From positions 186,367 to 250,366 of IMG/VR virus record IMGVR_UViG_3300029288_006769: a stretch of DNA of 64,000 nt; one strand, written 5' to 3'. Shown here piece after piece: positions 13,347 to 53,896 of this stretch. This DNA comes from a virus. Every line of letters begins with the position of its first letter. Within the stretch, counting starts at the first letter, position 1. The notes under the pieces are model-generated. The model searched no databases, was not told where the DNA came from, and was given only the letters and a program-made list of their open reading frames with translations. The translations under genes and the position numbers were made by a program.

Positions 13347-13385
13347 CTCAACAGAAGAGCTGTGTGGCTCCATAAAGGAATTTAA

Positions 13386-13781
13386 TGGAGGCGACGGGAG
13401 TCGAACCCGTGTCCAGAAAACGATCCATGACAATCACTACATGCTTATCTCAGTTTTAATACTCCAACACACTAACTGGGCAAACAATGCTATTGGAGTG
13501 CAAGAACGTAACTTCGGTCCCCTTCTCTCTCTTGCGATTCGGATTCCCTATTCGTGTCTGTAAAAGATTCGGCTCACACGACTGCACCAGAATCTTTTGT
13601 TGCTTTTAATTAAGCAACGACTGAATTCGCAACACCCAAGCGAACATTGTTCGCAAAAGCGAGAGCGAATTTTACTGCATAATTGTTGGCAATTATGTTT
13701 TTCCGGATTTTTACGAGGCCATCCAGACCCTCGGCATGCGACTGGCAATTCACATAATCTGTCGAAAACCGATACGCCCCC
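13386..13781 (-). ncRNA. ssrA: tmRNA (SsrA), one-piece
   Basis: minus-strand 5' end GGGGGCGTATCGGTTTTCGACAG...GCATGCCGAGGG..TGGCCTCGTAAAAA.CCG.AAAAA matches the conserved tmRNA 5' domain; 3' end GGGTTCGACTCCCGTCGCCTCCA forms the T-arm and acceptor; the 7-bp acceptor stem has a G3:U70 Ala identity pair; resume codon GCC at nt 92; tag ORF ends at a TAA inside the TTGCTTAATTAAAAGCAA hairpin; CCA is not encoded. Confidence 0.85.
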
Positions 13782-19158: not shown

Positions 19159-21014
19159 TATTGAGCGACTTGTTGATATAAGGTATCAGCTTGTTCATGA
19201 TCTTTTGAATTCTCTACTACAATTTTACTAAGAGGCCCTGATTTTTTAGACACATGAAAACTAATTCCATTGTCTCTAAGTTTTCTCTTAAACTGACTTA
19301 AATGTTGGATTGTAGGAAACTCATAAGTTTTCCACTCGGTTGACGACTTCTTAGTTTCATTGAGAATGTCATCAATTATTGATGCACTGTTTTTGTTCGA
19401 AAAAAGTTCGACATCAAAATTATTATCAGGCTGCACAAAACTTTCTTGTGTCTCTGTTGTCTCTGTTCTATCTTTCGATGCTCTTTTTCCAATATTCTTC
19501 TTTTCTTCATCTAAAGCAGCTTGAATCCCAAGAGTGAAAGTAGAAATAGTTTTTGACTGATCATTGCTTACAATTGCAGCACAAGTTTCAATCCAAGATT
19601 TAGGCACAAACGAGCTTGCTTTCTCAAACACTCTCTTTACAGCTCTCGGCGATCTTACTAAAGGGCTATTCGAAACTAACAATGCAACTTTAGTACAAGT
19701 CCCACAGTTGTTGAGACTGCAATTATTACATTTTGGATTTGCTTTCAAACTATAAATAAGTTTTCCGCCTGCATGCTGGATTTTTGAAAAATGCATTGCC
19801 ATTTCATCGCAATTTGTATAAATATTTGAATCAATGAAAACATAACCAATTTGTCCATAATGTCTTTGCAACTTATAATCATTCTCTGTCCAAAATTGAT
19901 TTGCAGCTTCAAAACCAAATTTCTGCCTAAGAGAACTCTTAACAGTCTCAAGGTCATCCCCCATAGTCATCAAATTAAAAGCATGATTTGTCATTGCTTT
20001 TGTATTGATTGTGAGCGGCTTCGATTTTGGCTCTATTTCAACACCTTGAAGAGTTGAACTCGCAAAATTCGTGTCAAAATTCTGCCGTCTTGCAAATCTT
20101 TCAAGTTTTTTCAATTCTTCTTTATGTGTTTCGACAAAATCTCTAAAAGTGTTGAAGCTATATTTGTGTGCAATCATTTTTCCAATCTCAGACTGAGAAA
20201 GACGAGAATTTAGCCCTTTCTTCCAATCTGACATAATTTCTGCATAAAAAGCTTGTTTCTGAAGTGCAGCATTCTTCTTGTCATTGTTTTTGACTTCACG
20301 AATATGCAAATCTTTTTCATCAGCATCTCTTTGGAAAGCTACTCGAGCTTCTTTTGCATTATAATAAGATCTTTTGATGGAATCAAGAGAAAATAAAAAT
20401 TTAGATGCAACAAAAACAGGACGTTTTGCTTCCAGCAAATCTTTGTATTCTTTTATTGTCGCCTTTGTAATAAACTCAAGCCCTGAAAATTTATCAAGAA
20501 TATCATGAACAGTTGCACGTCGAATTTTGAAATCGATCTTAGCCTGTTCAATAATATTTGCATGTTTTTCCTCAAGATTTTCAAAACCAAGAAACGAGTA
20601 TTCATTAAGATGAAGTCTTATACTTGATTCTAAATATTTAAATACTTGTTCTTTGGCATATTTAGACAAAAGTTCAGTATGGATCTGTTCAAAACTTTTT
20701 TTATCTCTGATCAAAGTTTCAACAGTTCTATCTATTGTTTTCATTACTACGTCTTGAGCAATTCTTTGCGATTTTTCAGCTGTGAATCTGTTTTCTATAT
20801 TTGATTCTCTAGACCCATCAGAAGTCAGTTCGTTGGCCCTAGACAAACCCGAATCTTTCTCATAAGGGATTACAGGTACCTCGAGTTTAGGAGGCTCGTA
20901 ATTAATCTCCTGTTCAGCAAGTTTCTCAATATAGTCAGGCATTGTTTTGCGACTGGGAGTACTATCTAGAATACCTGAAAAACCTTGATCAAAAATTCCA
21001 TTCAACGGGTCCAT
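19158..21014 (-). CDS. large hypothetical protein
   Basis: 618 aa; internal Cys cluster CNNCSLNNCGTC. Confidence 0.55.
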   Translation of the reverse strand: MDPLNGIFDQGFSGILDSTPSRKTMPDYIEKLAEQEINYEPPKLEVPVIPYEKDSGLSRANELTSDGSRESNIENRFTAEKSQRIAQDVVMKTIDRTVETLIRDKKSFEQIHTELLSKYAKEQVFKYLESSIRLHLNEYSFLGFENLEEKHANIIEQAKIDFKIRRATVHDILDKFSGLEFITKATIKEYKDLLEAKRPVFVASKFLFSLDSIKRSYYNAKEARVAFQRDADEKDLHIREVKNNDKKNAALQKQAFYAEIMSDWKKGLNSRLSQSEIGKMIAHKYSFNTFRDFVETHKEELKKLERFARRQNFDTNFASSTLQGVEIEPKSKPLTINTKAMTNHAFNLMTMGDDLETVKSSLRQKFGFEAANQFWTENDYKLQRHYGQIGYVFIDSNIYTNCDEMAMHFSKIQHAGGKLIYSLKANPKCNNCSLNNCGTCTKVALLVSNSPLVRSPRAVKRVFEKASSFVPKSWIETCAAIVSNDQSKTISTFTLGIQAALDEEKKNIGKRASKDRTETTETQESFVQPDNNFDVELFSNKNSASIIDDILNETKKSSTEWKTYEFPTIQHLSQFKRKLRDNGISFHVSKKSGPLSKIVVENSKDHEQADTLYQQVAQ

Positions 21015-21030
21015 GTTTTTAATCCTTTAT

Positions 21031-22299
21031 TTAAGTTGCAAAAGTTGCAATAAGAGGAGAAATGTATTGATTATCTAACAAATAATCTTCTTGCTTCATA
21101 GAATATAGACTTACTTTAATATTTGGTATTGTCTTAAAATAATCAAACATTAAAGAAGAGGTCTTGTTCTCCACAAGCTTAAAATCCCCATATACCATAG
21201 GTATTTTTCTATAACTCAAACCTTCAATCTTAATTAATTTTGCAGACTTTATATCGCGATCTTCTTCAAATCCACAAACATGACACTTAAACATTCTTTC
21301 ACTTAAAGTAAATTTTGTTTTTGAACTACATAAAGGACATATTTGCGTTGAAGGAAAGTAACGATCCACAAAAATTGTCTTAGATGTTTTTCTTAATTCA
21401 TCTAATATTCGTCCAATTATTGTAGAACTTATTTTTCTTCCATACAAACGTTGCCATCCTACTAAATTATCGTTTTGAATGCAAATAAAATCAAAATTGT
21501 TCTTTAAGTAACTAGTTATCTTGTTTGAGACATCTTCTTTTTGATTGTTTATTTTTAAATATTCTTTTCTGATTTTCATCCTGGACTTAAACTTGTTTTT
21601 AGAATTTCTAATTTGTCTAGAAATCTTTTTTTGTATTAATCTTATTTTATTGTTTTTGAAAGTAGTATCAATTTTAATTCCATTTGAAAAATTTAAAATA
21701 TTCTTAATACCTAAATCACATCCAATTGTTTGATTCGATATAGATCGTTCTTGTTTTTGTTGAAAAGTAGTAATATGAAAAAAGAAACTAAAAGGTTTTC
21801 TTATAAGTCTTATACTAGAAATTTCTGAATTTTCTGGTATTTGCTTTAATCCTCTTACTTTAAAAACTTTTTTATAATTTTCAATTTTTATCGAATTAGA
21901 TTTTACATACATATTACCTGGAATAGAATTTATTTCGCTTTTAAATTTTAATTTTCCTACTTTTTCGTTTTTTTTCTTTTTTGTTGCAAGTCCTTTTATA
22001 TTATAAATTATTTTTTGATAAATCTTTGCTCTCATAGAACTACTCAAATGTCTTAAATCTTTCTCTTCAAACTCTCTTTCTTTATTCATTACAGAAACTT
22101 TTTTTAACTTGCAATCAACAGAAAAAATATTTTTTTGAGATAAACAAAAATTATACCACCATTTTGCTTCAAGAAACAATCTGTTAAGAAATTCCAATTT
22201 GTCTTTTGATAATCTTGACATATCGATTTTTACTTCATAAATTTTACAAAGTTGTTTTTTTCTCTTTTCTTTTGTTGATTGACTTTGGATAAAAGACAT
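21031..22299 (-). CDS. tnpB: TnpB-like RuvC nuclease (IS200/IS605 OrfB family)
   Basis: N-terminal OrfB HTH-like helix (WWYNFCL); RuvC-I GCDLGIKN; RuvC-II region IQNDNL (Asp where Glu is usual); zinc finger CPLC..CHVC; RuvC-III DRDIKSAKLI. Confidence 0.8.
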   Translation of the reverse strand: MSFIQSQSTKEKRKKQLCKIYEVKIDMSRLSKDKLEFLNRLFLEAKWWYNFCLSQKNIFSVDCKLKKVSVMNKEREFEEKDLRHLSSSMRAKIYQKIIYNIKGLATKKKKNEKVGKLKFKSEINSIPGNMYVKSNSIKIENYKKVFKVRGLKQIPENSEISSIRLIRKPFSFFFHITTFQQKQERSISNQTIGCDLGIKNILNFSNGIKIDTTFKNNKIRLIQKKISRQIRNSKNKFKSRMKIRKEYLKINNQKEDVSNKITSYLKNNFDFICIQNDNLVGWQRLYGRKISSTIIGRILDELRKTSKTIFVDRYFPSTQICPLCSSKTKFTLSERMFKCHVCGFEEDRDIKSAKLIKIEGLSYRKIPMVYGDFKLVENKTSSLMFDYFKTIPNIKVSLYSMKQEDYLLDNQYISPLIATFAT

Positions 22300-22338
22300 T
22301 TTAAAATTTTCACATATCTGTTGTGATTTGCAAAAAAC

Positions 22339-22651
22339 TCACTTAAGTTCCAAATCAAAAATTACTTGGTTTTTTTCGCCCATTTGAATTTCTGTCTTCT
22401 TGGGCTCTCCATTATATCGTTTTTCAAGAATTTCAGCTACATCAGACATATCTATTATGACTCGAGTTCCACCTTTTGATTCTTGTACTGTTACGGGAAT
22501 CAAAACTTTTTCTTTTCCTTCGCCATCAAGTCTTTCTTCTGGCTCCATATCCTCGCAACATTTTTCTTCGTCACATGCCTCAATAAAAGCTTTTTTTAGC
22601 AATTTTTTTAGGAGCAAGAATTGTACATATAGCGCAAGAACAAGTATGCAT
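22339..22651 (-). CDS. Cys-rich small protein, paralog A (frame broken in a poly-A run)
   Basis: ATG CAT ACT TGT TCT TGC... gives MHTCSCAICTILAPKKIAKK, then the frame shifts at GCT-A7-GC (A6 in paralog B); the downstream frame matches track ORF 22339-22617. Confidence 0.4.
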
Positions 22652-22652
22652 T

Positions 22653-22787
22653 TTATCCACCTATTTTTCTTGGTTTTTCAAATATATCAAGAGGTCTCTC
22701 AGCTTCTCCGTCTTTTGGCTCTTTACTTTCTAAACCAAAATCCTGAGATTCATTTAAAACTTCTTGTATTATTTGTTCATTTTTCAT
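22653..22787 (-). CDS. small acidic protein (44 aa), copy A
   Basis: MKNEQIIQEVLNESQDFGLESKEPKDGEAERPLDIFEKPRKIGG; its stop is 1 nt before the Cys-rich ORF start; its ATG overlaps the stop of paralog B (ATGA). Confidence 0.35.
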   Translation of the reverse strand: MKNEQIIQEVLNESQDFGLESKEPKDGEAERPLDIFEKPRKIGG

Positions 22788-23050
22788 TTAATATCTAGCT
22801 TATCCCAAAATTCAACGATTTGTTTTATTGTATCTTCTAAAGAATCTCCACTTTGGAAACTTCCTTCAATCTTAATTCTAAAACCCATTTTATCGGGAGT
22901 CTCAGTAATAACCATGTCAACACCAGGGCCAAGTTCAACTTTTTTTGCAGTTTTATCAAGTTTTTCTTCGTCACATGCTTCAATAAAAGCTTTTTTAGCA
23001 ATTTTTTGAGGATCAAGAACTGCACATATAGAACAAGAACAAGTTCGCAT
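22784..23050 (-). CDS. Cys-rich small protein, paralog B
   Basis: MRTCSCSICAVLDPQKIAKKAFIEACDEEK..., in frame; shares the N-terminus with paralog A. Confidence 0.5.
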   Translation of the reverse strand: MRTCSCSICAVLDPQKIAKKAFIEACDEEKLDKTAKKVELGPGVDMVITETPDKMGFRIKIEGSFQSGDSLEDTIKQIVEFWDKLDIK

Positions 23051-23051
23051 T

Positions 23052-23186
23052 TCACCCGCCTATTTTTCTTGGTTTTTCAAATATATCAAGAGGTCTCTCA
23101 GCTTCTCCGTCTTTTGGCTCTTTACTTTCTAAACCAAAATCTTGAGTGTCGTCAAGAAATTCTTGTATTATTTGCTCGTCTTTCAA
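23052..23186 (-). CDS. small acidic protein, copy B (TTG start)
   Basis: LKDEQIIQEFLDDTQDFGLESKEPKDGEAERPLDIFEKPRKIGG; same length and position as copy A. Confidence 0.3.
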   Translation of the reverse strand: MKDEQIIQEFLDDTQDFGLESKEPKDGEAERPLDIFEKPRKIGG

Positions 23187-23281
23187 GCGATATCCATAGT
23201 TATTTAAATATTAATGTAACATGTTTTAATATCTTTATTTGTTTTGATTAACATATTATTCTTCTATAGTCTTTTTTAAAT

Positions 23282-24295
23282 TTATTTAGCAGTAACCCAA
23301 GACACGACAAATTCATAACCATCAGGAATCTTTCTAAATTTTTGTATGCCTTCAAAATCATAAAAAGTATGAGTAAGATTAAATTCATCTTCATCATAAT
23401 GTAAATCCTTTATTTCTTCTTCTAATTTTTCTTTTGTATAATTTTCTTTAGTTTTTAACACTAAATGGACATAATACTCACCTTCATATTCTTCATCTAT
23501 ATCATCTTCATCTTTATCCAAGGCATCGTTTATTTGATCATTATCTTTAATCTTTTTAAGCAGTTCTTTTACTGAATTACCTTCTAATTTAACATCAGCT
23601 TCCAATGTACTTGTTATTTTAAATCCCATAGATTTTGACAGCTCAAAGAAACTGTCGATTCCTGCCATGAATTTTTCAAACAAAGTTACATATTCAGTTT
23701 TGTCACCCTCTTTTAAGTACGTTAACCATTTTTCAGTGTCGATCGCTCTCTTCAATTCATCAACATGTTTCTCAGCCTTTTCAAAAGCTGTGGTAAATTC
23801 TGATGAATCAGCAAACTCTTTTGCTTCAACTTCTTTTGATGCTTTCTTGTCAGCTACACCTTTTTCATCTTCTTTGAAAAGCCGCATAACATGCTTTTTA
23901 TCTTCAGAAATTTTCCAAAAATCACCAGTCTCTAAATCTTCATAAACATCTCGACCAGCAACTTTGAAAATACCAACTTGTCTATAAGCCATTGCTGTCA
24001 TCAAACTCATCTGAGTTTGTTTTGCTCTTTGTGCAACAAGCTCTTTGAAAAAATCTTGAGCAACAGATTTAGGATTATCACCAAGACTTGCTCTCTTCTT
24101 ATAAATATCTATAGTTGCATGTGTGATTTCAGGGCTCTTGTCAAAAGCTCTTAAAACTTTCTCAATGTCCTGCATAACATTACTATATGTCACAATCTCT
24201 TTACCATTGGGCAGTTGTGAAGCAGCTGTCTTGACAATACCGCGTTTTGAAACTTCCAAATTATCAAGAAAACTAGATTCTGTATCTCTTCTCAT
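23282..24295 (-). CDS. hypothetical protein
   Basis: 337 aa, acidic C-terminal half. Confidence 0.5.
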   Translation of the reverse strand: MRRDTESSFLDNLEVSKRGIVKTAASQLPNGKEIVTYSNVMQDIEKVLRAFDKSPEITHATIDIYKKRASLGDNPKSVAQDFFKELVAQRAKQTQMSLMTAMAYRQVGIFKVAGRDVYEDLETGDFWKISEDKKHVMRLFKEDEKGVADKKASKEVEAKEFADSSEFTTAFEKAEKHVDELKRAIDTEKWLTYLKEGDKTEYVTLFEKFMAGIDSFFELSKSMGFKITSTLEADVKLEGNSVKELLKKIKDNDQINDALDKDEDDIDEEYEGEYYVHLVLKTKENYTKEKLEEEIKDLHYDEDEFNLTHTFYDFEGIQKFRKIPDGYEFVVSWVTAK

Positions 24296-24305
24296 ATAAT
24301 CTCCT

Positions 24306-24611
24306 TTATACTAAAGTAAGTTTCTTTTTCATTGCTTTCAATTTCAACATAAGCTTTTTAAAATCATCTTGTGACTCTAAGACGCTTGGTGAACTAGAAC
24401 CTGAAAGACTTTCGATTGCCATATCAACTTCTGTTGTCAAATTTTCTACAATATCTCTTAATTCCATTGCTAAAGTAGTTGCTTCATCAACCTGTTCTTG
24501 TGGTACTGTTGTAACGACAGTTTCGTCTTTTGGTACTTGATCTTCAGGAAGATCGGGCCCTGGTACAACTTCTTTTGCAAGAATCTCATTTGCAATTTTT
24601 AAAACATTCAT
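24306..24611 (-). CDS. hypothetical protein
   Basis: 101 aa. Confidence 0.4.
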   Translation of the reverse strand: MNVLKIANEILAKEVVPGPDLPEDQVPKDETVVTTVPQEQVDEATTLAMELRDIVENLTTEVDMAIESLSGSSSPSVLESQDDFKKLMLKLKAMKKKLTLV

Positions 24612-45997: not shown

Positions 45998-47283
45998 TTT
46001 ACCTCATTCAAAAGAAATTCAATTGTTTTTTCGTTCAAAGCAGCTGTCCGCATCAATTCGAATTGTTGTTTATTAGTTTTTAGTTCTTCCTTGATTTTTG
46101 TCTGACGATCAACATCATGTTTAAGCATACTTGAAATTTGCATTGCATAGGTAACAATTTCATCATCTGTCACCAATATCCCAAAATCTTTTGCAACCTG
46201 TTCGAGTACTAAAGCAGCTTTAATAGACTCTATAGAACGTTGTGTATAATGATCAAAGAAACCCTCTTTAGAAACTTTTTCTTTTGCAATCTGTTCTTCA
46301 GTTTTTCCAATGCGTTTTAAAAACGCATTCCATTCTTTTTCATTTTCTCGATCTATCATTACTTTGGGTATTGGTGTGATATTCGAATTATTGATAACAG
46401 ATAACAGCACTTGCTTTTTAAAAGTTTCTTTTGCATTATTCTCTTTCTCTTCAGCAAATTTAAGTCTTAAATTTTCTTCATACAATTTGATTGTGTCAAA
46501 CCCTTTTGATTTTGCAAATTGTTCATTATATTCAGGAATTATTTTGTCTTTGATTGCTTTAAGAGTAACAGTAAAAATAGCTTTTTTACCAGCTAGTGTT
46601 GTTTCTCTATAATTTGTCGGGAATGTTACAAATATTTGTCTTGTCTCTTCTTTCTTCATCCCAATGAGCTGATCTTCAAAATTGTCTATAAATTGTTTTT
46701 GTCCATTTATGATTTCATTTATTTTTATCTGATAACCTTTAGCAACACCACCCTTAAAAGGCGTTGCTTCACCTTCAAGTCTGCCTTCGAAATCGATTAC
46801 AGCAATATCAAAATTTTCTAATGATTCTTTTTCAGAATCAAGTATGATTTCGCTTTTCTTTACTTCCATTGTTATCTTATCTCTAAATTCATTTTCTGTC
46901 AGTATAGATTCGGGCTTTTCGATCTTGATTGCGTTTAGAACTGGTAAGCTGATCAAAGGTTTTATTTCAGCAACAAATTCGATAGTAAAAGATGATTTTT
47001 TCTTTAAATCACCAAAAAATTTAAAATCAGCAGAAGAAACAATATTGGGTTCTACATTCACAATGTCATGAAAAATTTGATCAACCATAGGTTTATAAAG
47101 TCGTTCAATTCTTAAACGACTTTCAGCAACATCCCGAGGAACATTTCCTTTTCTGAAACCTGGAATCTCTATATTACTTTTTACTTTGTCATAGCATTCT
47201 TTTTTTCTTGTTTCAACATCATCGGGGTCTAATGTCACAATGTATTTCACTGGTGCAGGCATTGCTTCTGTTTTAATGTTCAT
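45994..47283 (-). CDS. tig: trigger factor (ribosome-associated chaperone/PPIase) homolog
   Basis: ribosome-binding signature GFRKGNVP near residue 40, central FKBP-like PPIase region (GG..KG...I..I..G..FI..FE..L.G....ET....V.FP..Y....LAGK.A.F.V.L), 429 aa as in bacterial TF. Confidence 0.8.
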   Translation of the reverse strand: MNIKTEAMPAPVKYIVTLDPDDVETRKKECYDKVKSNIEIPGFRKGNVPRDVAESRLRIERLYKPMVDQIFHDIVNVEPNIVSSADFKFFGDLKKKSSFTIEFVAEIKPLISLPVLNAIKIEKPESILTENEFRDKITMEVKKSEIILDSEKESLENFDIAVIDFEGRLEGEATPFKGGVAKGYQIKINEIINGQKQFIDNFEDQLIGMKKEETRQIFVTFPTNYRETTLAGKKAIFTVTLKAIKDKIIPEYNEQFAKSKGFDTIKLYEENLRLKFAEEKENNAKETFKKQVLLSVINNSNITPIPKVMIDRENEKEWNAFLKRIGKTEEQIAKEKVSKEGFFDHYTQRSIESIKAALVLEQVAKDFGILVTDDEIVTYAMQISSMLKHDVDRQTKIKEELKTNKQQFELMRTAALNEKTIEFLLNEVK

Positions 47284-50658: not shown

Positions 50659-50994
50659 TTACGTAAGGTCTGTCACTCCATCGCCAAATAAAGCAGCTTG
50701 AGTGAATGTATCACCCTTGTCATCATGATAATATAAAATTGTCCCGTCAGGAAATTTATCCGTTTCTATAGGATCAATCCCTACAGCACAAGACTCGACA
50801 TCGAATTTGATAACCCAAGTCTTTAAAGAATCATCATGTTTTGAAACAGTAGTATGAACAAGTCCAACGGATTTACAAGAATCTATTCTCCCATTACTTG
50901 CAATATCTATAATTCTAAGTAATGCGGTGGAAATAATAGAAATCGCTTGTTTGTCAGAAATGTTTGAGGACTTTGAATCTTGGTTCTGATTCAT
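50659..50994 (-). CDS. hypothetical protein
   Basis: 111 aa. Confidence 0.4.
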   Translation of the reverse strand: MNQNQDSKSSNISDKQAISIISTALLRIIDIASNGRIDSCKSVGLVHTTVSKHDDSLKTWVIKFDVESCAVGIDPIETDKFPDGTILYYHDDKGDTFTQAALFGDGVTDLT

Positions 50995-53896
50995 AAATTT
51001 GCATTCGTTTCTTTGAATGACCAGTCAGATATCGTATTCTATCATAAAAATCAACTATTATGGCTTCTTTTTTTTCATTATTTTCAGCTGAAGGATAAGG
51101 TCTTAATGTTCTACCTACACGTTGCAATGACTTGATTAATGATTTGCCCCCACCTGCCATAATAGCAGAACCCAGAGCAGGTATGTCTACACCTTCGTCT
51201 GCCACAGTGTTATGACAAAGAATGCCTTGACCACTAAAAAAATTCTCGCTTTCTTCAACAGAGATGTCATAGACGACATCTCTGTCATAAACTTGCTCTT
51301 CAGTTCTTATGATAGGTAAAATATAGAATTGTCCTTCAATTTCATCTCTCAAATAAGATCTAGAACCCATTTTAACATGTCTACCAAGACCAAACAGATT
51401 GCCTACAACAGAAACTCTAAAAGCATAATTTCTCGTGATAATATCTTTTTGATTTCTTGGTTTTAAATCTGGTGGTACTACACTGTACTTAATTTTATTA
51501 AAACCATTTGCTAGTAGAATGCCTACAACACCATCTGTTAATTCTTTGCTTACAGAACCAAAAACAAATTGATGATCACCATCAAAACTTCCATCTGTTA
51601 AAAAATACCCATATAAAAAAGCCATTTGAATTTGTGTATTACTATTAAAAATATAGTTAGGTACTTTTTTTGTCAATGCTTTACCTATAACTCCTAAAAT
51701 ATCTCTAAATAACATAGAAATAAGTTGACCTCCGAAACAACATCCTCGTCCAGGAGTGACAACAACATCAAGAGATGGAAATAGCAACTTTAAATTTTTC
51801 ACCATTAAATCTACTGTATTTGCTTTTCTACTCTTTGCATTCTTATAAACAAAATGTTCATTAGGTTTTGCTGACAAAAAAAGCCTCCAAGAAGCATTAA
51901 CAGCTCCATCACCAATCAACATTCCACAGATTTCGCTTAGTTCTTTAGAATTATCTAAAAACAGGGGCAAAGAAAATTTTTTCCTACTTCTTCTCCAGTT
52001 GATTGTTGCACTTATTTTCTTATAATCTTTAAACAATAAAATTTTCTCAAAAGTAGTTCTGAATTTACCCTTATAAAATTTTACGTTCTCATTAAACCAC
52101 AAGACAAATGCTTTGTAATACAAAGACTTATTCTCTAATCTTTTCCCAATTTTATAATGAATTTTCTTGTCAAGAAGATTCATTAGATACTTATATTCAG
52201 ATTTTATTTTCCTAATATTTGCTTGTGTTAAATTCAGATTGATTTCTTTTTGATTTCGATCAAGCCAGATTTCAACCTTTCTGTTTTTTAATCTAGAAAA
52301 TTCTTTTACTAAATCAAATTGTTTAATTTTTTTTGAATTTAAGGGCAAATTTGTTGCTACAATAACAGTATTACCTTGTTTAGGCTCTACTTTTTTTTGC
52401 CTATTATCTTCTAATGTAATTAAAGAATGATTTGATGTTACACTTACACATCTTGTCGTTCCAACAGTTGTTCTAAGTATTGGCACATGTTTTTCGTGTC
52501 TAACTACATGAGTAATTTTCTTCCAACAAATTTTATTTTGCCAAAAAGATAATGTTTGAAATTCTGCTTCTATTTGAGTATTCAATGATGTCTCTACAAA
52601 TTCACCTATTCTTATCAAGCTTATTTTTTTGTTTTGATCTTTTATCCAAATAAATTCATCATAAGGCAAACTTGAGCCAACAAGTACCTGAAGTTGCTTT
52701 GTGCGCACTTTATTTAAAAGGTCTTTTCGCATCTCTCCATTAACTTCACCTTGTATAAAAGCAACAGAACCTACTCCCGCCTTGGCTAGCCTCTCACATA
52801 ATATGTCTCCATGTGGTAACCTGGTGACTGTAATCAACACAGACTTGCCTAACTCAAGTAATCGTAGAGTACTATCTATAATCATTTCATTACGAAGGTC
52901 ATTATTGACAATATACTCTTCATATATATTTCTGAAAGACTTTCTGACATATTTGTATTTTGGATGCTCATTAGGATCTAACATATAGATCCAAGGTTGA
53001 ACAAGATATCCTTTATCTATCAAGAAAGATGCACTTATATTGCAAATCTGTCTACCCGAATAAGCATCTAGAACTTTATCTATTGATTTATCACGGTATG
53101 GGGTCGCACTTAACGAATACCTAAAATATGCTGACTGCATTAATTGCATCATTTGAATATAGACAGGCGCAGTAGCGCGGTGACATTCATCACTTATTAC
53201 GACTTCAGCTTCTTGAACGACTTTTCTAATTTCATGTTTTCTTTCAAGAACATGTTTCGAAATTTTTTCTTTAAACATGTTTTCTTCATCAATAGCACTA
53301 TACTTCAAATCAAATGCACTATGTAATGTCTGAACTGTACATACATTGATTTGACGTATATCACAATATCCACCGCCTATTTTCCCGACTTTGATCTTGA
53401 ACATATTCTCAAATTCATCAGCTGTTTGTTCAAGCAAGTCAATAGAATAGACAATAAAAAGAGTTTTCAAATTAAGTTGAGCTACTATTGCTGCAGCAAT
53501 TACTGTTTTTCCACCACCAGTAGCTACTTTTATGACGCCTCGTTCAGCTTTTATTGCACTATGTACAACTTCTTCTTGATAATCTCTTAACTTCTTTGCG
53601 TGCATTTGTAAGGGATCACCAATAGACGGAATAATACGAGTATCAAGTACATCGAAAGAAAAATGACATTCTGATAAAATTCTATCAAGGGTAGAGTAGA
53701 GCCCGGTAGGATAGCGTAATCTCTCACGTTCAAATAATGGAATTTCGAGTTCAAAAGTTTCTTTTCTGAAATTTGAATACTCTTCTCGACTATAAGACAT
53801 TTCTGATTCAATACGTCGAATCAGTTCTGTATTCAGTTTAACATTGGGTTTAAGATGGGTCCATGTATTGTCAATAACAATTTCAAAATCAGCCAT
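50954..53896 (-). CDS. UvsW-like SF2 DNA helicase interrupted by an intein
   Basis: Walker A VATGGGKT, DECH box, motif VI QRVGRTLR; motif V is split as VLVGS / TVADEGVDIP by a 488-aa insert; extein about 492 aa. Confidence 0.8.
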   Translation of the reverse strand: MADFEIVIDNTWTHLKPNVKLNTELIRRIESEMSYSREEYSNFRKETFELEIPLFERERLRYPTGLYSTLDRILSECHFSFDVLDTRIIPSIGDPLQMHAKKLRDYQEEVVHSAIKAERGVIKVATGGGKTVIAAAIVAQLNLKTLFIVYSIDLLEQTADEFENMFKIKVGKIGGGYCDIRQINVCTVQTLHSAFDLKYSAIDEENMFKEKISKHVLERKHEIRKVVQEAEVVISDECHRATAPVYIQMMQLMQSAYFRYSLSATPYRDKSIDKVLDAYSGRQICNISASFLIDKGYLVQPWIYMLDPNEHPKYKYVRKSFRNIYEEYIVNNDLRNEMIIDSTLRLLELGKSVLITVTRLPHGDILCERLAKAGVGSVAFIQGEVNGEMRKDLLNKVRTKQLQVLVGSSLPYDEFIWIKDQNKKISLIRIGEFVETSLNTQIEAEFQTLSFWQNKICWKKITHVVRHEKHVPILRTTVGTTRCVSVTSNHSLITLEDNRQKKVEPKQGNTVIVATNLPLNSKKIKQFDLVKEFSRLKNRKVEIWLDRNQKEINLNLTQANIRKIKSEYKYLMNLLDKKIHYKIGKRLENKSLYYKAFVLWFNENVKFYKGKFRTTFEKILLFKDYKKISATINWRRSRKKFSLPLFLDNSKELSEICGMLIGDGAVNASWRLFLSAKPNEHFVYKNAKSRKANTVDLMVKNLKLLFPSLDVVVTPGRGCCFGGQLISMLFRDILGVIGKALTKKVPNYIFNSNTQIQMAFLYGYFLTDGSFDGDHQFVFGSVSKELTDGVVGILLANGFNKIKYSVVPPDLKPRNQKDIITRNYAFRVSVVGNLFGLGRHVKMGSRSYLRDEIEGQFYILPIIRTEEQVYDRDVVYDISVEESENFFSGQGILCHNTVADEGVDIPALGSAIMAGGGKSLIKSLQRVGRTLRPYPSAENNEKKEAIIVDFYDRIRYLTGHSKKRMQIYESEPRFKVLKHF
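51209..52672 (-). mobile_element. intein with LAGLIDADG homing endonuclease domain, within the helicase gene
   Basis: begins SLPYDEFIWI (block A), block B VTSNHSL, LAGLIDADG motifs ICGMLIGDGAV and LYGYFLTDGSF, ends ILCHN followed by Thr+1; coordinates approximate to a few nt. Confidence 0.7.

Follow-up and report, generated by a model that had tools for sequence, protein, structure and literature searches.

The window analysed here, 64,000 nucleotides (nt) of viral DNA at positions 186,367 to 250,366 of IMG/VR record IMGVR_UViG_3300029288_006769, carries on its minus strand an intact gene for a predicted TnpB, an RNA-guided nuclease of the insertion sequence (IS) family IS200/IS605, directly downstream of a tandemly duplicated cassette of small genes. 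The 422-codon tnpB open reading frame (ORF) lies at 21031–22299 of the window, ahead of a gene for a 618-residue protein. On its 5' side stand a short spacer, the two cassette units, each made of a 44-residue acidic ORF and a cysteine-rich gene, and a gene for a 337-residue protein. The source is a huge phage of about 424 kb, since the exact TnpB protein (P0001) sits on a 424,144-bp contig and the locus is syntenic with contigs of 424–427 kb and one IMG/VR viral contig. A preliminary description, made from the sequence alone, suggested that a domesticated TnpB might serve the cassette as a guide-RNA nuclease or as a driver of its recombination. We think it fairly probable, instead, that two unrelated neighbours meet here: a TnpB–omega RNA element without a TnpA transposase, and a recombination-shuffled hotspot with a real, most simply recent and inactivating, insertion of one A.

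The assignment to TnpB is borne out by family searches. The 422-residue product matches the Pfam families OrfB_IS605 (PF01385; 33.3 bits, cut-off 30.5) and, over residues 306–356, Cas12f1-like_TNB (PF07282; 38.4 bits, cut-off 26.3), as well as PHROG 506 (E = 4e-41) and PDB TnpB chains including 8bf8 and 8iaz (E = 1e-8 to 1e-14). Among 513 TnpB homologues found, the closest is 61% identical, and on these matches the protein is a TnpB of the IS200/IS605 family.

The preliminary description had proposed a covariance-model search of the tnpB 3' end for an omega RNA, also termed right-end element RNA (reRNA), and such a search finds one. A model (R1) built from 13 TnpA-linked relatives only, with the window and its phage-clade sequences excluded, matches the window over its full length at 21062–21232 (−), wholly within the tnpB frame, with 67.7 bits and E = 1.7e-16. 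The runner-up, at 46738–46834 (−), reaches 17.8 bits (rough E 0.005) over 97 nt of the 170-position model and, with no tnpB near it, is probably a chance match. R1 also matches 81 TnpB-bearing loci at the tnpB 3' end, two of them cut short by a contig end, and has no match in the TnpB-less phage relatives L008, L098, L099 and L100–L103. Over the last ~170 nt of tnpB, nucleotide conservation is far above the expectation from protein identity; in L014 and L015, where translation ends ahead of the RNA motif, the motif is still kept and conservation extends beyond the stop codon. RNAalifold folds 20 sequences (alignment A7) into five helices with compensatory changes in 20 of 29 pairs, and covariation is seen in 35 of the 38 pairs of an 84-row alignment drawn from the R1 matches (alignment A10). 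Paired cells make up 95% (95.4% in alignment A7) and 93% (alignment A10), against 27–43% with the partners slid. Comparison across relatives was needed to recognise the RNA because the single-sequence fold of the tnpB 3' region is not significant (z −0.95). On this evidence, TnpB carries an omega RNA scaffold in the 3' 170 nt of its own gene.

Within the scaffold, a kink-turn-like module (CUUGUGGAG ... AUGAAGCAAGAA) at 21088–21177 (−) resembles RAGATH-18, and its closing helix covaries, reading CCUG/CAGG in most relatives and CUUG/CAAG in the window's clade. RAGATH-18 is the reRNA motif of IS607 TnpBs, as in ISFba1 (Ren et al. 2024, PMC11061315). ISFba1 shares with the window a kink-turn-like C-U-G-U-G-G-A-G ... 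A-U-G-A-A-x-C-A-G-G-A-A with a covarying closing helix, and a similar protein size. Its motif, however, comes after the end of the gene and has a further 64 nt of scaffold behind it, whereas that of the window is inside the ORF and followed by 25 nt only, and IS607 elements use a serine recombinase where the window's family uses a Y1 transposase. We rejected membership in RAGATH-18: the window scaffold scores 21.8 bits against Rfam RF03064 (E 0.08–0.4), below the gathering score of 44.9, neither L033 nor L009–L015 has a match, and the family transposase is Y1. The likeness appears to be one of resemblance.

Right ends of relatives consist of a hairpin, CCTCAC-AGCTTTAGC-GTGAGG, followed by TAGTTCAC, and beyond the terminal TTCAC each relative's sequence turns unrelated. 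The positional counterparts in the window are a subterminal hairpin, ATTAT-TTGTTAG-ATAAT, at 21070–21086 (−) and a terminal octamer, CAATACAT, at 21062–21069 (−). Because the 3' end of the scaffold model and the right ends of the relatives stop there, the element ends at 21062. The earlier statement that no IS ends are visible therefore holds for the left end alone, the right end being recognisable by comparison. The first DNA past the model, TTCTCCTCTTATTGCAACTT at 21042–21061 (−), is the predicted guide, its length of 20 nt being taken from other TnpB systems; a search of the window with its first 18 nt, allowing up to three mismatches, matched its own flank and no second site.

The final 9–10 codons of tnpB and its stop (21031–21061) are thus flanking DNA read through from the right end. 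Related TnpBs have unrelated C-terminal tails or earlier stops, and the unrelated tails among close homologues arise because the tnpB frame reads through hairpin and guide into the flank. The same read-through explains the apparent jamming of tnpB against the next gene: the ORF runs past the element end to a stop at 21031, which leaves a spacer of 16 nt (17 in the preliminary description, which was right about the tight packing), while 47 nt separate the element end from the next ATG. The tight packing is incidental and no evidence of domestication. For annotation in general, this is a caution that tight packing and an odd C-terminal tail of a TnpB can arise from an ORF reading through into its own guide.

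Most of the active site is conventional. The RuvC-I aspartate D195 (21715–21717, in the motif I-G-C-D-L-G), the zinc finger CxxC...CxxC (C321, C324, C339, C342; 21274–21339) and the RuvC-III motif D347-R-D349 (21253–21261), which aligns to the DRD of ISDra2 TnpB, are invariant in alignments A2 and A4, and a regular-expression search finds the D195 motif in 111 of 120 homologues. The RuvC-II region is Q275-N-D277-N (21466–21477), within the motif I-Q-N-D-N-L (residues 274–279). The preliminary description noted these letters correctly, as NDNL in place of the usual E-D-L. HMMER alignments to 9yyg, 8iaz and 8bf8 let the catalytic glutamate fall on Q275, which leaves Gln at the canonical position and an acid, Asp, at +2. 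Q275 is invariant in the family alignment, and the pattern Q-[DN]-[ED]-x recurs in 114 of 120 homologues, with Glu at +2 in 92 and Asp in 22; Asp is kept in the closest clade, P0002–P0010 included. Because Gln and the acid at +2 are found in these 114 homologues and the other catalytic and zinc residues are invariant, QNDN appears to be a family-wide conserved, rearranged active site, and the reading as decay falls away.

Replacement of the canonical RuvC-II glutamate by an alternative acid defines the RIIr branches of TnpB, some of them virus-specific, whose conservation was read by the authors as activity retained (PMC10691335). The window's family is alike in general kind to these branches (Altae-Tran et al. 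2023), without being tied to a named one: in the largest published, RIIr-5, the Glu has become Gly and a Glu is supplied from a loop, whereas the window has Gln and an acid two residues along the same strand. An acid moved by two residues would offer a natural experiment on active-site plasticity, and the window's Asp for Glu a test case. By analogy with published IS605 and IS607 TnpB work (PMC10055086; PMC11061315), we infer nuclease activity, guide length, the target-adjacent motif (TAM) and a homing lifestyle.

The left side of the element is another matter. A tblastn search of the 64-kb window with the TnpA of L033 found no Y1 TnpA, in agreement with the preliminary description; in 26 related loci this query did detect a TnpA, immediately 5' of tnpB. 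Relatives at 40–45% identity have a Y1 TnpA upstream of tnpB, TTAC at the end of their left flank and a hairpin in the left end, and are of classical IS200/IS605 architecture. In the window, the 39 nt between the stop of the last cassette gene and the tnpB start (22300–22338) contain no TTAC, no right-end-like hairpin and no recognisable left end, only a small hairpin, TCACA-ACAGATA-TGTGA. Alignment of clade members upstream of tnpB reveals neither a common end nor conservation 5' of the ATG, intergenic DNA aligns with that of TnpB-less relatives only at the ribosome-binding site and start region, and in L014 the tnpB ATG follows directly on the stop of the gene before it. Since the phage-borne copies look left-end-less, homing or recombination, or else immobilisation, would seem to fit them better than TnpA transposition.

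In the closest relatives a small zinc-ribbon ORF of ~45 residues (RFEECKRCGWKWIPR..KP..CPKCK..YW) stands directly 5' of tnpB (L010 ~2150–2270, L011 ~2370–2500, L019 ~1260–1400). It is degraded in L009, is preceded by a shared AT-rich segment and has no counterpart in the window; these relatives may carry it as a component of the mobile unit of their subclade.

These losses could be taken to mean that the TnpB is a dead relic, a decaying remnant deprived of its RuvC-II glutamate, its TnpA and its left end. The canonical Glu is indeed Gln, the acid at +2 is Asp and not the family-usual Glu, the left part is missing, including the zinc-ribbon ORF of L010, L011 and L019, and the right-end hairpin is weak. 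A relic, however, would hardly be expected to keep a full-length ORF with all other invariant residues, or an RNA scaffold that scores 67.7 bits against a model of distant relatives. Gln with the acid at +2 also occurs in TnpA-linked, presumably mobile members among the 114 homologues, and Asp at +2 in 22 homologues, the closest among them. We regard decay as quite unlikely.

Domestication would account for the same absences in another way: an immobilised TnpB adopted by the phage, whose fixed guide excludes or cuts competitors, regulates the 618-residue gene or drives recombination of the cassette. Besides the lack of TnpA in 64 kb and of a left end, it could draw on the intact ORF and RNA, on a tnpB that is co-oriented and tightly packed in a phage operon (likewise in L009, L013, L014 and L015) and on documented exapted, immobile TnpBs (PMC10691335). 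Yet the guide is the DNA next to the element, as it would be for an IS without modification, insertion sites vary among phages of the same lineage, and the cassette locus occurs without TnpB in at least five relatives. The catalytic set, moreover, is normal for the family, with no inactivation or truncation of the kind typical of known regulators, and we hold domestication to be distinctly improbable.

TldR proteins, nuclease-dead TnpB-like repressors, have lost RuvC residues and are truncated before RuvC-III. They resemble the window's protein as immobile TnpB homologues without a transposase beside a variable gene, and differ from it in that the window's is full length at 422 residues with D195, D347-R-D349 and the zinc finger intact. 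A TldR-related comparison is offered by the 'Flagellin-TnpB' clade (PMC10691335).

Set against the IS200/IS605 OMEGA systems (ISDra2 TnpB, PDB 8bf8/8h1j; IS608-type), the window's element has the same OrfB_IS605 domain, zinc ribbon and RuvC-I and RuvC-III DRD, and likewise a scaffold that overlaps the tnpB 3' end, stops at the right end and takes its guide from the flank; its relatives at 40–45% identity have the Y1 TnpA, TTAC target and matching end hairpins. It departs from these systems in lacking TnpA and a left end, in residing in a ~424-kb phage genome and not in a cell, in having the scaffold and even the guide inside the reading frame, and in the Gln of RuvC-II with its acid at +2. It is nonetheless a compact RNA-guided nuclease candidate from a huge phage, with its guide RNA and an exact scaffold–guide boundary at 21062/21061.

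On the upstream side of tnpB, the preliminary description had recognised a unit of ~430 bp present twice. The repeat is confirmed at a smaller size, with a period of 399/400 bp and ~250 nt in common; these common parts, first described as almost identical, are 87–89% identical around an 83-nt core at 22660–22742 (−), which is identical to 23059–23141 and marks the crossover in the one-unit allele discussed below. The two 44-residue acidic ORFs and the two cysteine-rich ORFs beginning with M-x-T-C-S-C-x-I-C are all present where they had been placed. Copy B comprises an acidic ORF with a TTG start (23052–23186, −) and an intact gene for 88 residues (22784–23050, −; P0121 is identical) in which a CxCxxC N-module of 30 residues precedes a B-type C-domain. 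Copy A comprises an acidic ORF (22653–22787, −) whose ATG overlaps the copy B stop (ATGA) and a cysteine-rich gene (22339–22651, −) broken by one extra A, which when corrected encodes 103 residues with an A-type C-domain; P0125 (100 residues) and P0126 (142 residues) are intact orthologues. Because the first ORF of copy A overlaps the stop of copy B, there is no duplicated promoter region, and the promoter proposed for each unit is not supported: sigma-70-like matches are weak (9/12) and number 19, no clear excess over the 11.8 ± 3.9 in shuffled sequences.

The 5' parts of the two copies are similar and the 3' parts unalignable, a divergence already noted at the outset. The B-domain forms the C-terminus of the homologue of the 337-residue gene in L099, from which it differs by 21 synonymous and 9 nonsynonymous codon changes. 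For the A-domain, synonymous and nonsynonymous changes stand at 16:22 and 21:21 between the window and the intact orthologues and at 14:25 between the orthologues themselves, and remote small-protein homologues are found in P0127–P0133. Because intact A-type orthologues exist and the B-domain recurs in another gene of L099, and in view of the codon-change counts, the two C-termini are distinct, separately conserved modules under constraint, brought together by module shuffling and partial duplication. Of the rapidly diversifying locus first suggested, the variation in gene number and C-modules stands and rapid divergence after duplication does not. The acidic ORF is conserved in L099, with synonymous and nonsynonymous changes roughly balanced (13:14 relative to copy B, 11:10 relative to copy A), and is an orphan, a search of 5.8 billion proteins having recovered its own two copies and nothing else.

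Pfam and PHROGs give nothing above noise for the small cassette proteins, so that membership of the cysteine-rich ORFs in a well-known family, a possibility raised earlier, found no match. An AlphaFold2 model of the A-type domain predicts a beta-beta-alpha-beta-beta fold (predicted local distance difference test score ~95), for which fold searches were uninformative (AbrB/MazE at E 0.19; ubiquitin-like or MinE folds at Z ≤3). The cysteine-rich proteins are a small-protein family without detectable homologues outside this phage lineage.

Comparison with related phages, proposed in the preliminary description, reveals variation in the number of cysteine-rich genes and in their C-modules at the site between the homologues of the 337-residue and 618-residue genes. 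L014 has no gene there; L008 and L100–L103 have a single CxCxxC gene, whose C-domain is of a third type; L098 has an intact A-type gene (P0125, 100 residues) and a third-type gene; in L099 the 44-residue ORF stands beside an intact A-type gene (P0126, 142 residues), and the B-domain ends the 337-residue homologue; and the window has two units, each an acidic ORF with a cysteine-rich gene, followed by TnpB. Counted as cysteine-rich genes, the series runs from none (L014) through one (L008, L100–L103) and two (L098) to two with TnpB (window), and the site is a variable accessory-gene hotspot.

Several smaller features of the hotspot proteins recur in their surroundings. The 337-residue protein (window 23282–24295, −; L099 5–337) has a conserved N-terminal half and C-terminal modules that differ among phages, and a segment PG(I/V)PDGTGP...CPCKK is common to a 326-residue protein of L008 and P0126. 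The N-terminal motif M-x-x-x-K-I-A-x-E-I-L starts a 101-residue gene two genes upstream of the cassette (24306–24611, −), a gene at L008 4369–4647 and the remote A-domain homologues P0129–P0133. The cysteine-rich proteins have a similar K-I-A-K-K segment behind CxCxxC, and the K-I-A segment may be a common N-terminal tag. The homology between the window's B-domain and L099 starts at a poly-A tract, GCAAAAAAAG (window 22961–22975, −; L099 170–185), and the similarity of copies A and B stops at GAAGAAAAA, so that the module junctions coincide with A-rich microhomologies. Two antisense ORFs of 132 residues (22400–22798 and 22853–23251, +) mirror the cassette; being of low complexity and opposed to the uniform gene orientation, they most likely arise from the repeat as spurious frames.

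A conserved N-module joined to interchangeable C-domains, in genes whose number varies at one site, would also suit proteins that are packaged and injected, the N-terminus acting as an address tag and the swappable C-domains on the host. The motif M-x-x-x-K-I-A-x-E-I-L, shared by the remote A-domain homologues and the 101-residue gene at 24306–24611, is in keeping with such a tag. The analogy is with the internal-protein locus of T4, and in the window it is one of architecture only (a conserved N-terminus with variable C-domains); Pfam and PHROGs return no matches for these proteins, and their genes stand in no demonstrated structural-gene context. We consider this idea unlikely, though not negligible.

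The break in copy A, which the preliminary description had detected, is a run of seven adenines (A7) at 22591–22597 (−) where copy B and L098 have six (A6). In the zero frame, translation stops after 23 codons (22580–22651); removal of one A yields the 103-residue product, and addition of two A also restores the frame. Identical tnpB genes occur on seven contigs from different samples, and all six assemblies that span the site (L001–L005 and L007, again from different samples) carry A7. Because these assemblies are independent, the frameshift is real and the artefact proposed as one of its explanations can be set aside. They represent a single strain, with no differences over 5.7 kb outside the repeat, and so their agreement is silent on conservation.

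Of the contigs that extend into the repeat, L001 and L005 traverse a single unit, which resembles copy B on the 5' side of the 83-nt core and copy A on the 3' side; the others break off within the repeat. L001 and the window do not differ over 5.7 kb of the remaining sequence, and a second strain was rejected as the source of L001 and L005 on the ground of their identity to the window there. A contig based on k = 31, such as L005, would be interrupted by a true two-copy repeat, and the junction lies within L001; for these reasons we regard the single unit as a probably real, one-unit recombinant allele of the same phage.

The simplest reading of A7 is a recent +1 insertion that is inactivating, perhaps leakily so, because the frame is intact in the orthologues and in copy B and no stimulatory structure follows the run. 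Its rival is that A7 is functional, either as programmed recoding, with RNA polymerase slipping or ribosomes shifting by +1 on A-AAA-AAA-G so that both the 23-residue and the 103-residue product arise, or as A6/A7 phase variation. Such a role would agree with the fixation of A7 in six independent assemblies and its presence in the one-unit allele, in the sole cysteine-rich gene of that allele, with a slippery homopolymer at the shift site on which tRNA-Lys re-pairs perfectly after a +1 slip, and with a downstream frame that is open for 84 codons and has no nonsynonymous excess. The six assemblies, however, are one strain, which makes the insertion real without making it conserved; the reading frame is unbroken in P0125, P0126 and copy B, which have A6 or lack a run; the sequence downstream of A7 has no stimulatory structure (z −0.59); and a scan of the window for further genes split at A/T runs returned ordinary gene junctions only, at thresholds that also missed the copy A site. 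A functional A7 seems to us an outside chance, and the recent insertion remains the preferred reading.

Nothing found at the locus ties TnpB to the cassette. L008, L098, L099 and L100–L103 have the cassette locus but neither TnpB nor omega RNA, and TnpBs of the same clade stand in unrelated contexts, so that the adjacency appears to be chance and there is no evidence for a functional tie. L014, a more distant member of the same phage lineage (69% identity to the window in the sigma-like protein, 53% in the 618-residue protein), has a TnpB of the same clade, 54% identical, at another intergenic site, between the sigma-like gene and the homologue of a 222-residue gene, and no cysteine-rich gene. 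At that site (L014 3251–5697) the TnpB starts right after the sigma-like stop and is followed by an extra ORF of 116 residues that has no counterpart in the window or L100. The cassette was also tried as cargo or left part of the IS and rejected, its proteins being unlike those of any TnpB locus and the cassette existing without TnpB. Neither, then, does the domesticated driver first proposed for the cassette hold up, with relatives that lack TnpB, a TnpB elsewhere in L014 and a guide that matches its own flank only. Because element and hotspot each occur without the other in relatives, we judge them independent: the TnpB–omega RNA is an ordinary selfish element of a catalytically rearranged IS200/IS605 family, and TnpB and hotspot alike are of known general kinds.

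How such an element might persist can be outlined from these parts. It lies in the intergenic gap upstream of the 618-residue gene; TnpB would bind the omega RNA and about 20 nt of phage flank (21061–21042) would serve as the guide. The complex could then cut TAM and flank sequence in an allele without the insertion, for example in a co-infecting relative, by means of the conserved variant active site (D195, Q275 with Asp277 at +2, D347/D349), and recombinational repair would copy the element in, in the way that free-standing homing endonuclease genes spread. Since the element lacks both TnpA and a left end, peel-and-paste transposition is probably not used. The seg and mob genes of T4 are free-standing homing endonuclease genes of this kind, single nuclease genes between conserved genes, present or absent, at varied intergenic sites. 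The window's TnpB is alike in placement and is predicted by analogy to cut the allele lacking it; unlike the T4 enzymes, its target recognition would be guided by RNA and not by protein, and its homing is a prediction. The hotspot proteins, for their part, combine a common CxCxxC N-module with interchangeable C-domains; the window has a partial tandem duplication of the 44-residue ORF with the cysteine-rich N-module, each copy being followed by a different domain, and recombination across the 83-nt core would yield the one-unit allele in the population.

A bolder version would make the adjacency a matter of cause and effect and not of chance: left-end-less TnpB genes would act as RNA-guided homing endonucleases among co-infecting phages of ~420 kb, and breaks at empty alleles would stimulate shuffling of the adjacent hotspot. 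We give this little credence. Certain observations also weigh against two unrelated neighbours as we describe them. The right-end hairpin of the window has only five A-T pairs, and its terminal octamer differs from that of the closest relatives at two of eight positions. The canonical RuvC-II glutamate is missing, and the role of the Asp at +2 is a prediction. Neither a left end nor a TAM was found, and hence the empty-site target cannot be reconstructed; the 64-kb window holds one copy of the element and gives no direct sign of recent movement. In copy A, the frame beyond A7 is open for 84 codons and its codon-change ratios against the intact orthologues (16:22 and 21:21) are no worse than those between orthologues (14:25), which is compatible with a mutation of very recent date as well as with a frameshift that is tolerated and decoded. 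Whatever the fate of copy A, the cassette documents a hotspot whose modules are swapped and whose copy number is polymorphic, with a homopolymer frameshift that is real and an orphan small-protein family.

The window is AT-rich (~33% G+C), and all its ORFs of at least 120 residues lie on the minus strand except nested antisense ones. The window encodes a transfer-messenger RNA (tmRNA), a sigma-like protein, a DnaB-type helicase and an intein-split helicase; the majority of its ORFs have no family match, and Pfam and PHROGs give nothing above noise for the neighbouring 618-residue and 337-residue proteins. A blastn search with 20000–24500 found no match in 50,697 phage records, and a scan of IMG/VR for the TnpB found no relative. 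TnpB genes are common in deposited phage genomes (346 of the 50,697 records), none of them close, the best being that of Thermus phage phiLo at 32% identity.

L001 (GCA_028717785.1, JAQUND010000072.1), which carries the exact locus, is labelled at NCBI as a 'Candidatus Nanoarchaeia archaeon' metagenome-assembled genome. The bacterial-type tmRNA, the sigma-like gene, DnaB and the synteny with viral contigs of 424–427 kb contradict this label and indicate a mis-binned bacteriophage. The tmRNA gene, at 13383–13781 (−), is full length (147 bits in Rfam) in a genome otherwise like that of a huge phage, and ARAGORN reads its tag peptide as ANNYAVKFALAFANNVRLGVANSVVA. The split helicase, of superfamily 2 and 980 residues long (ResIII/DEAD/Helicase_C; 50954–53896, −), is split by an intein that bears a LAGLIDADG homing-endonuclease domain.

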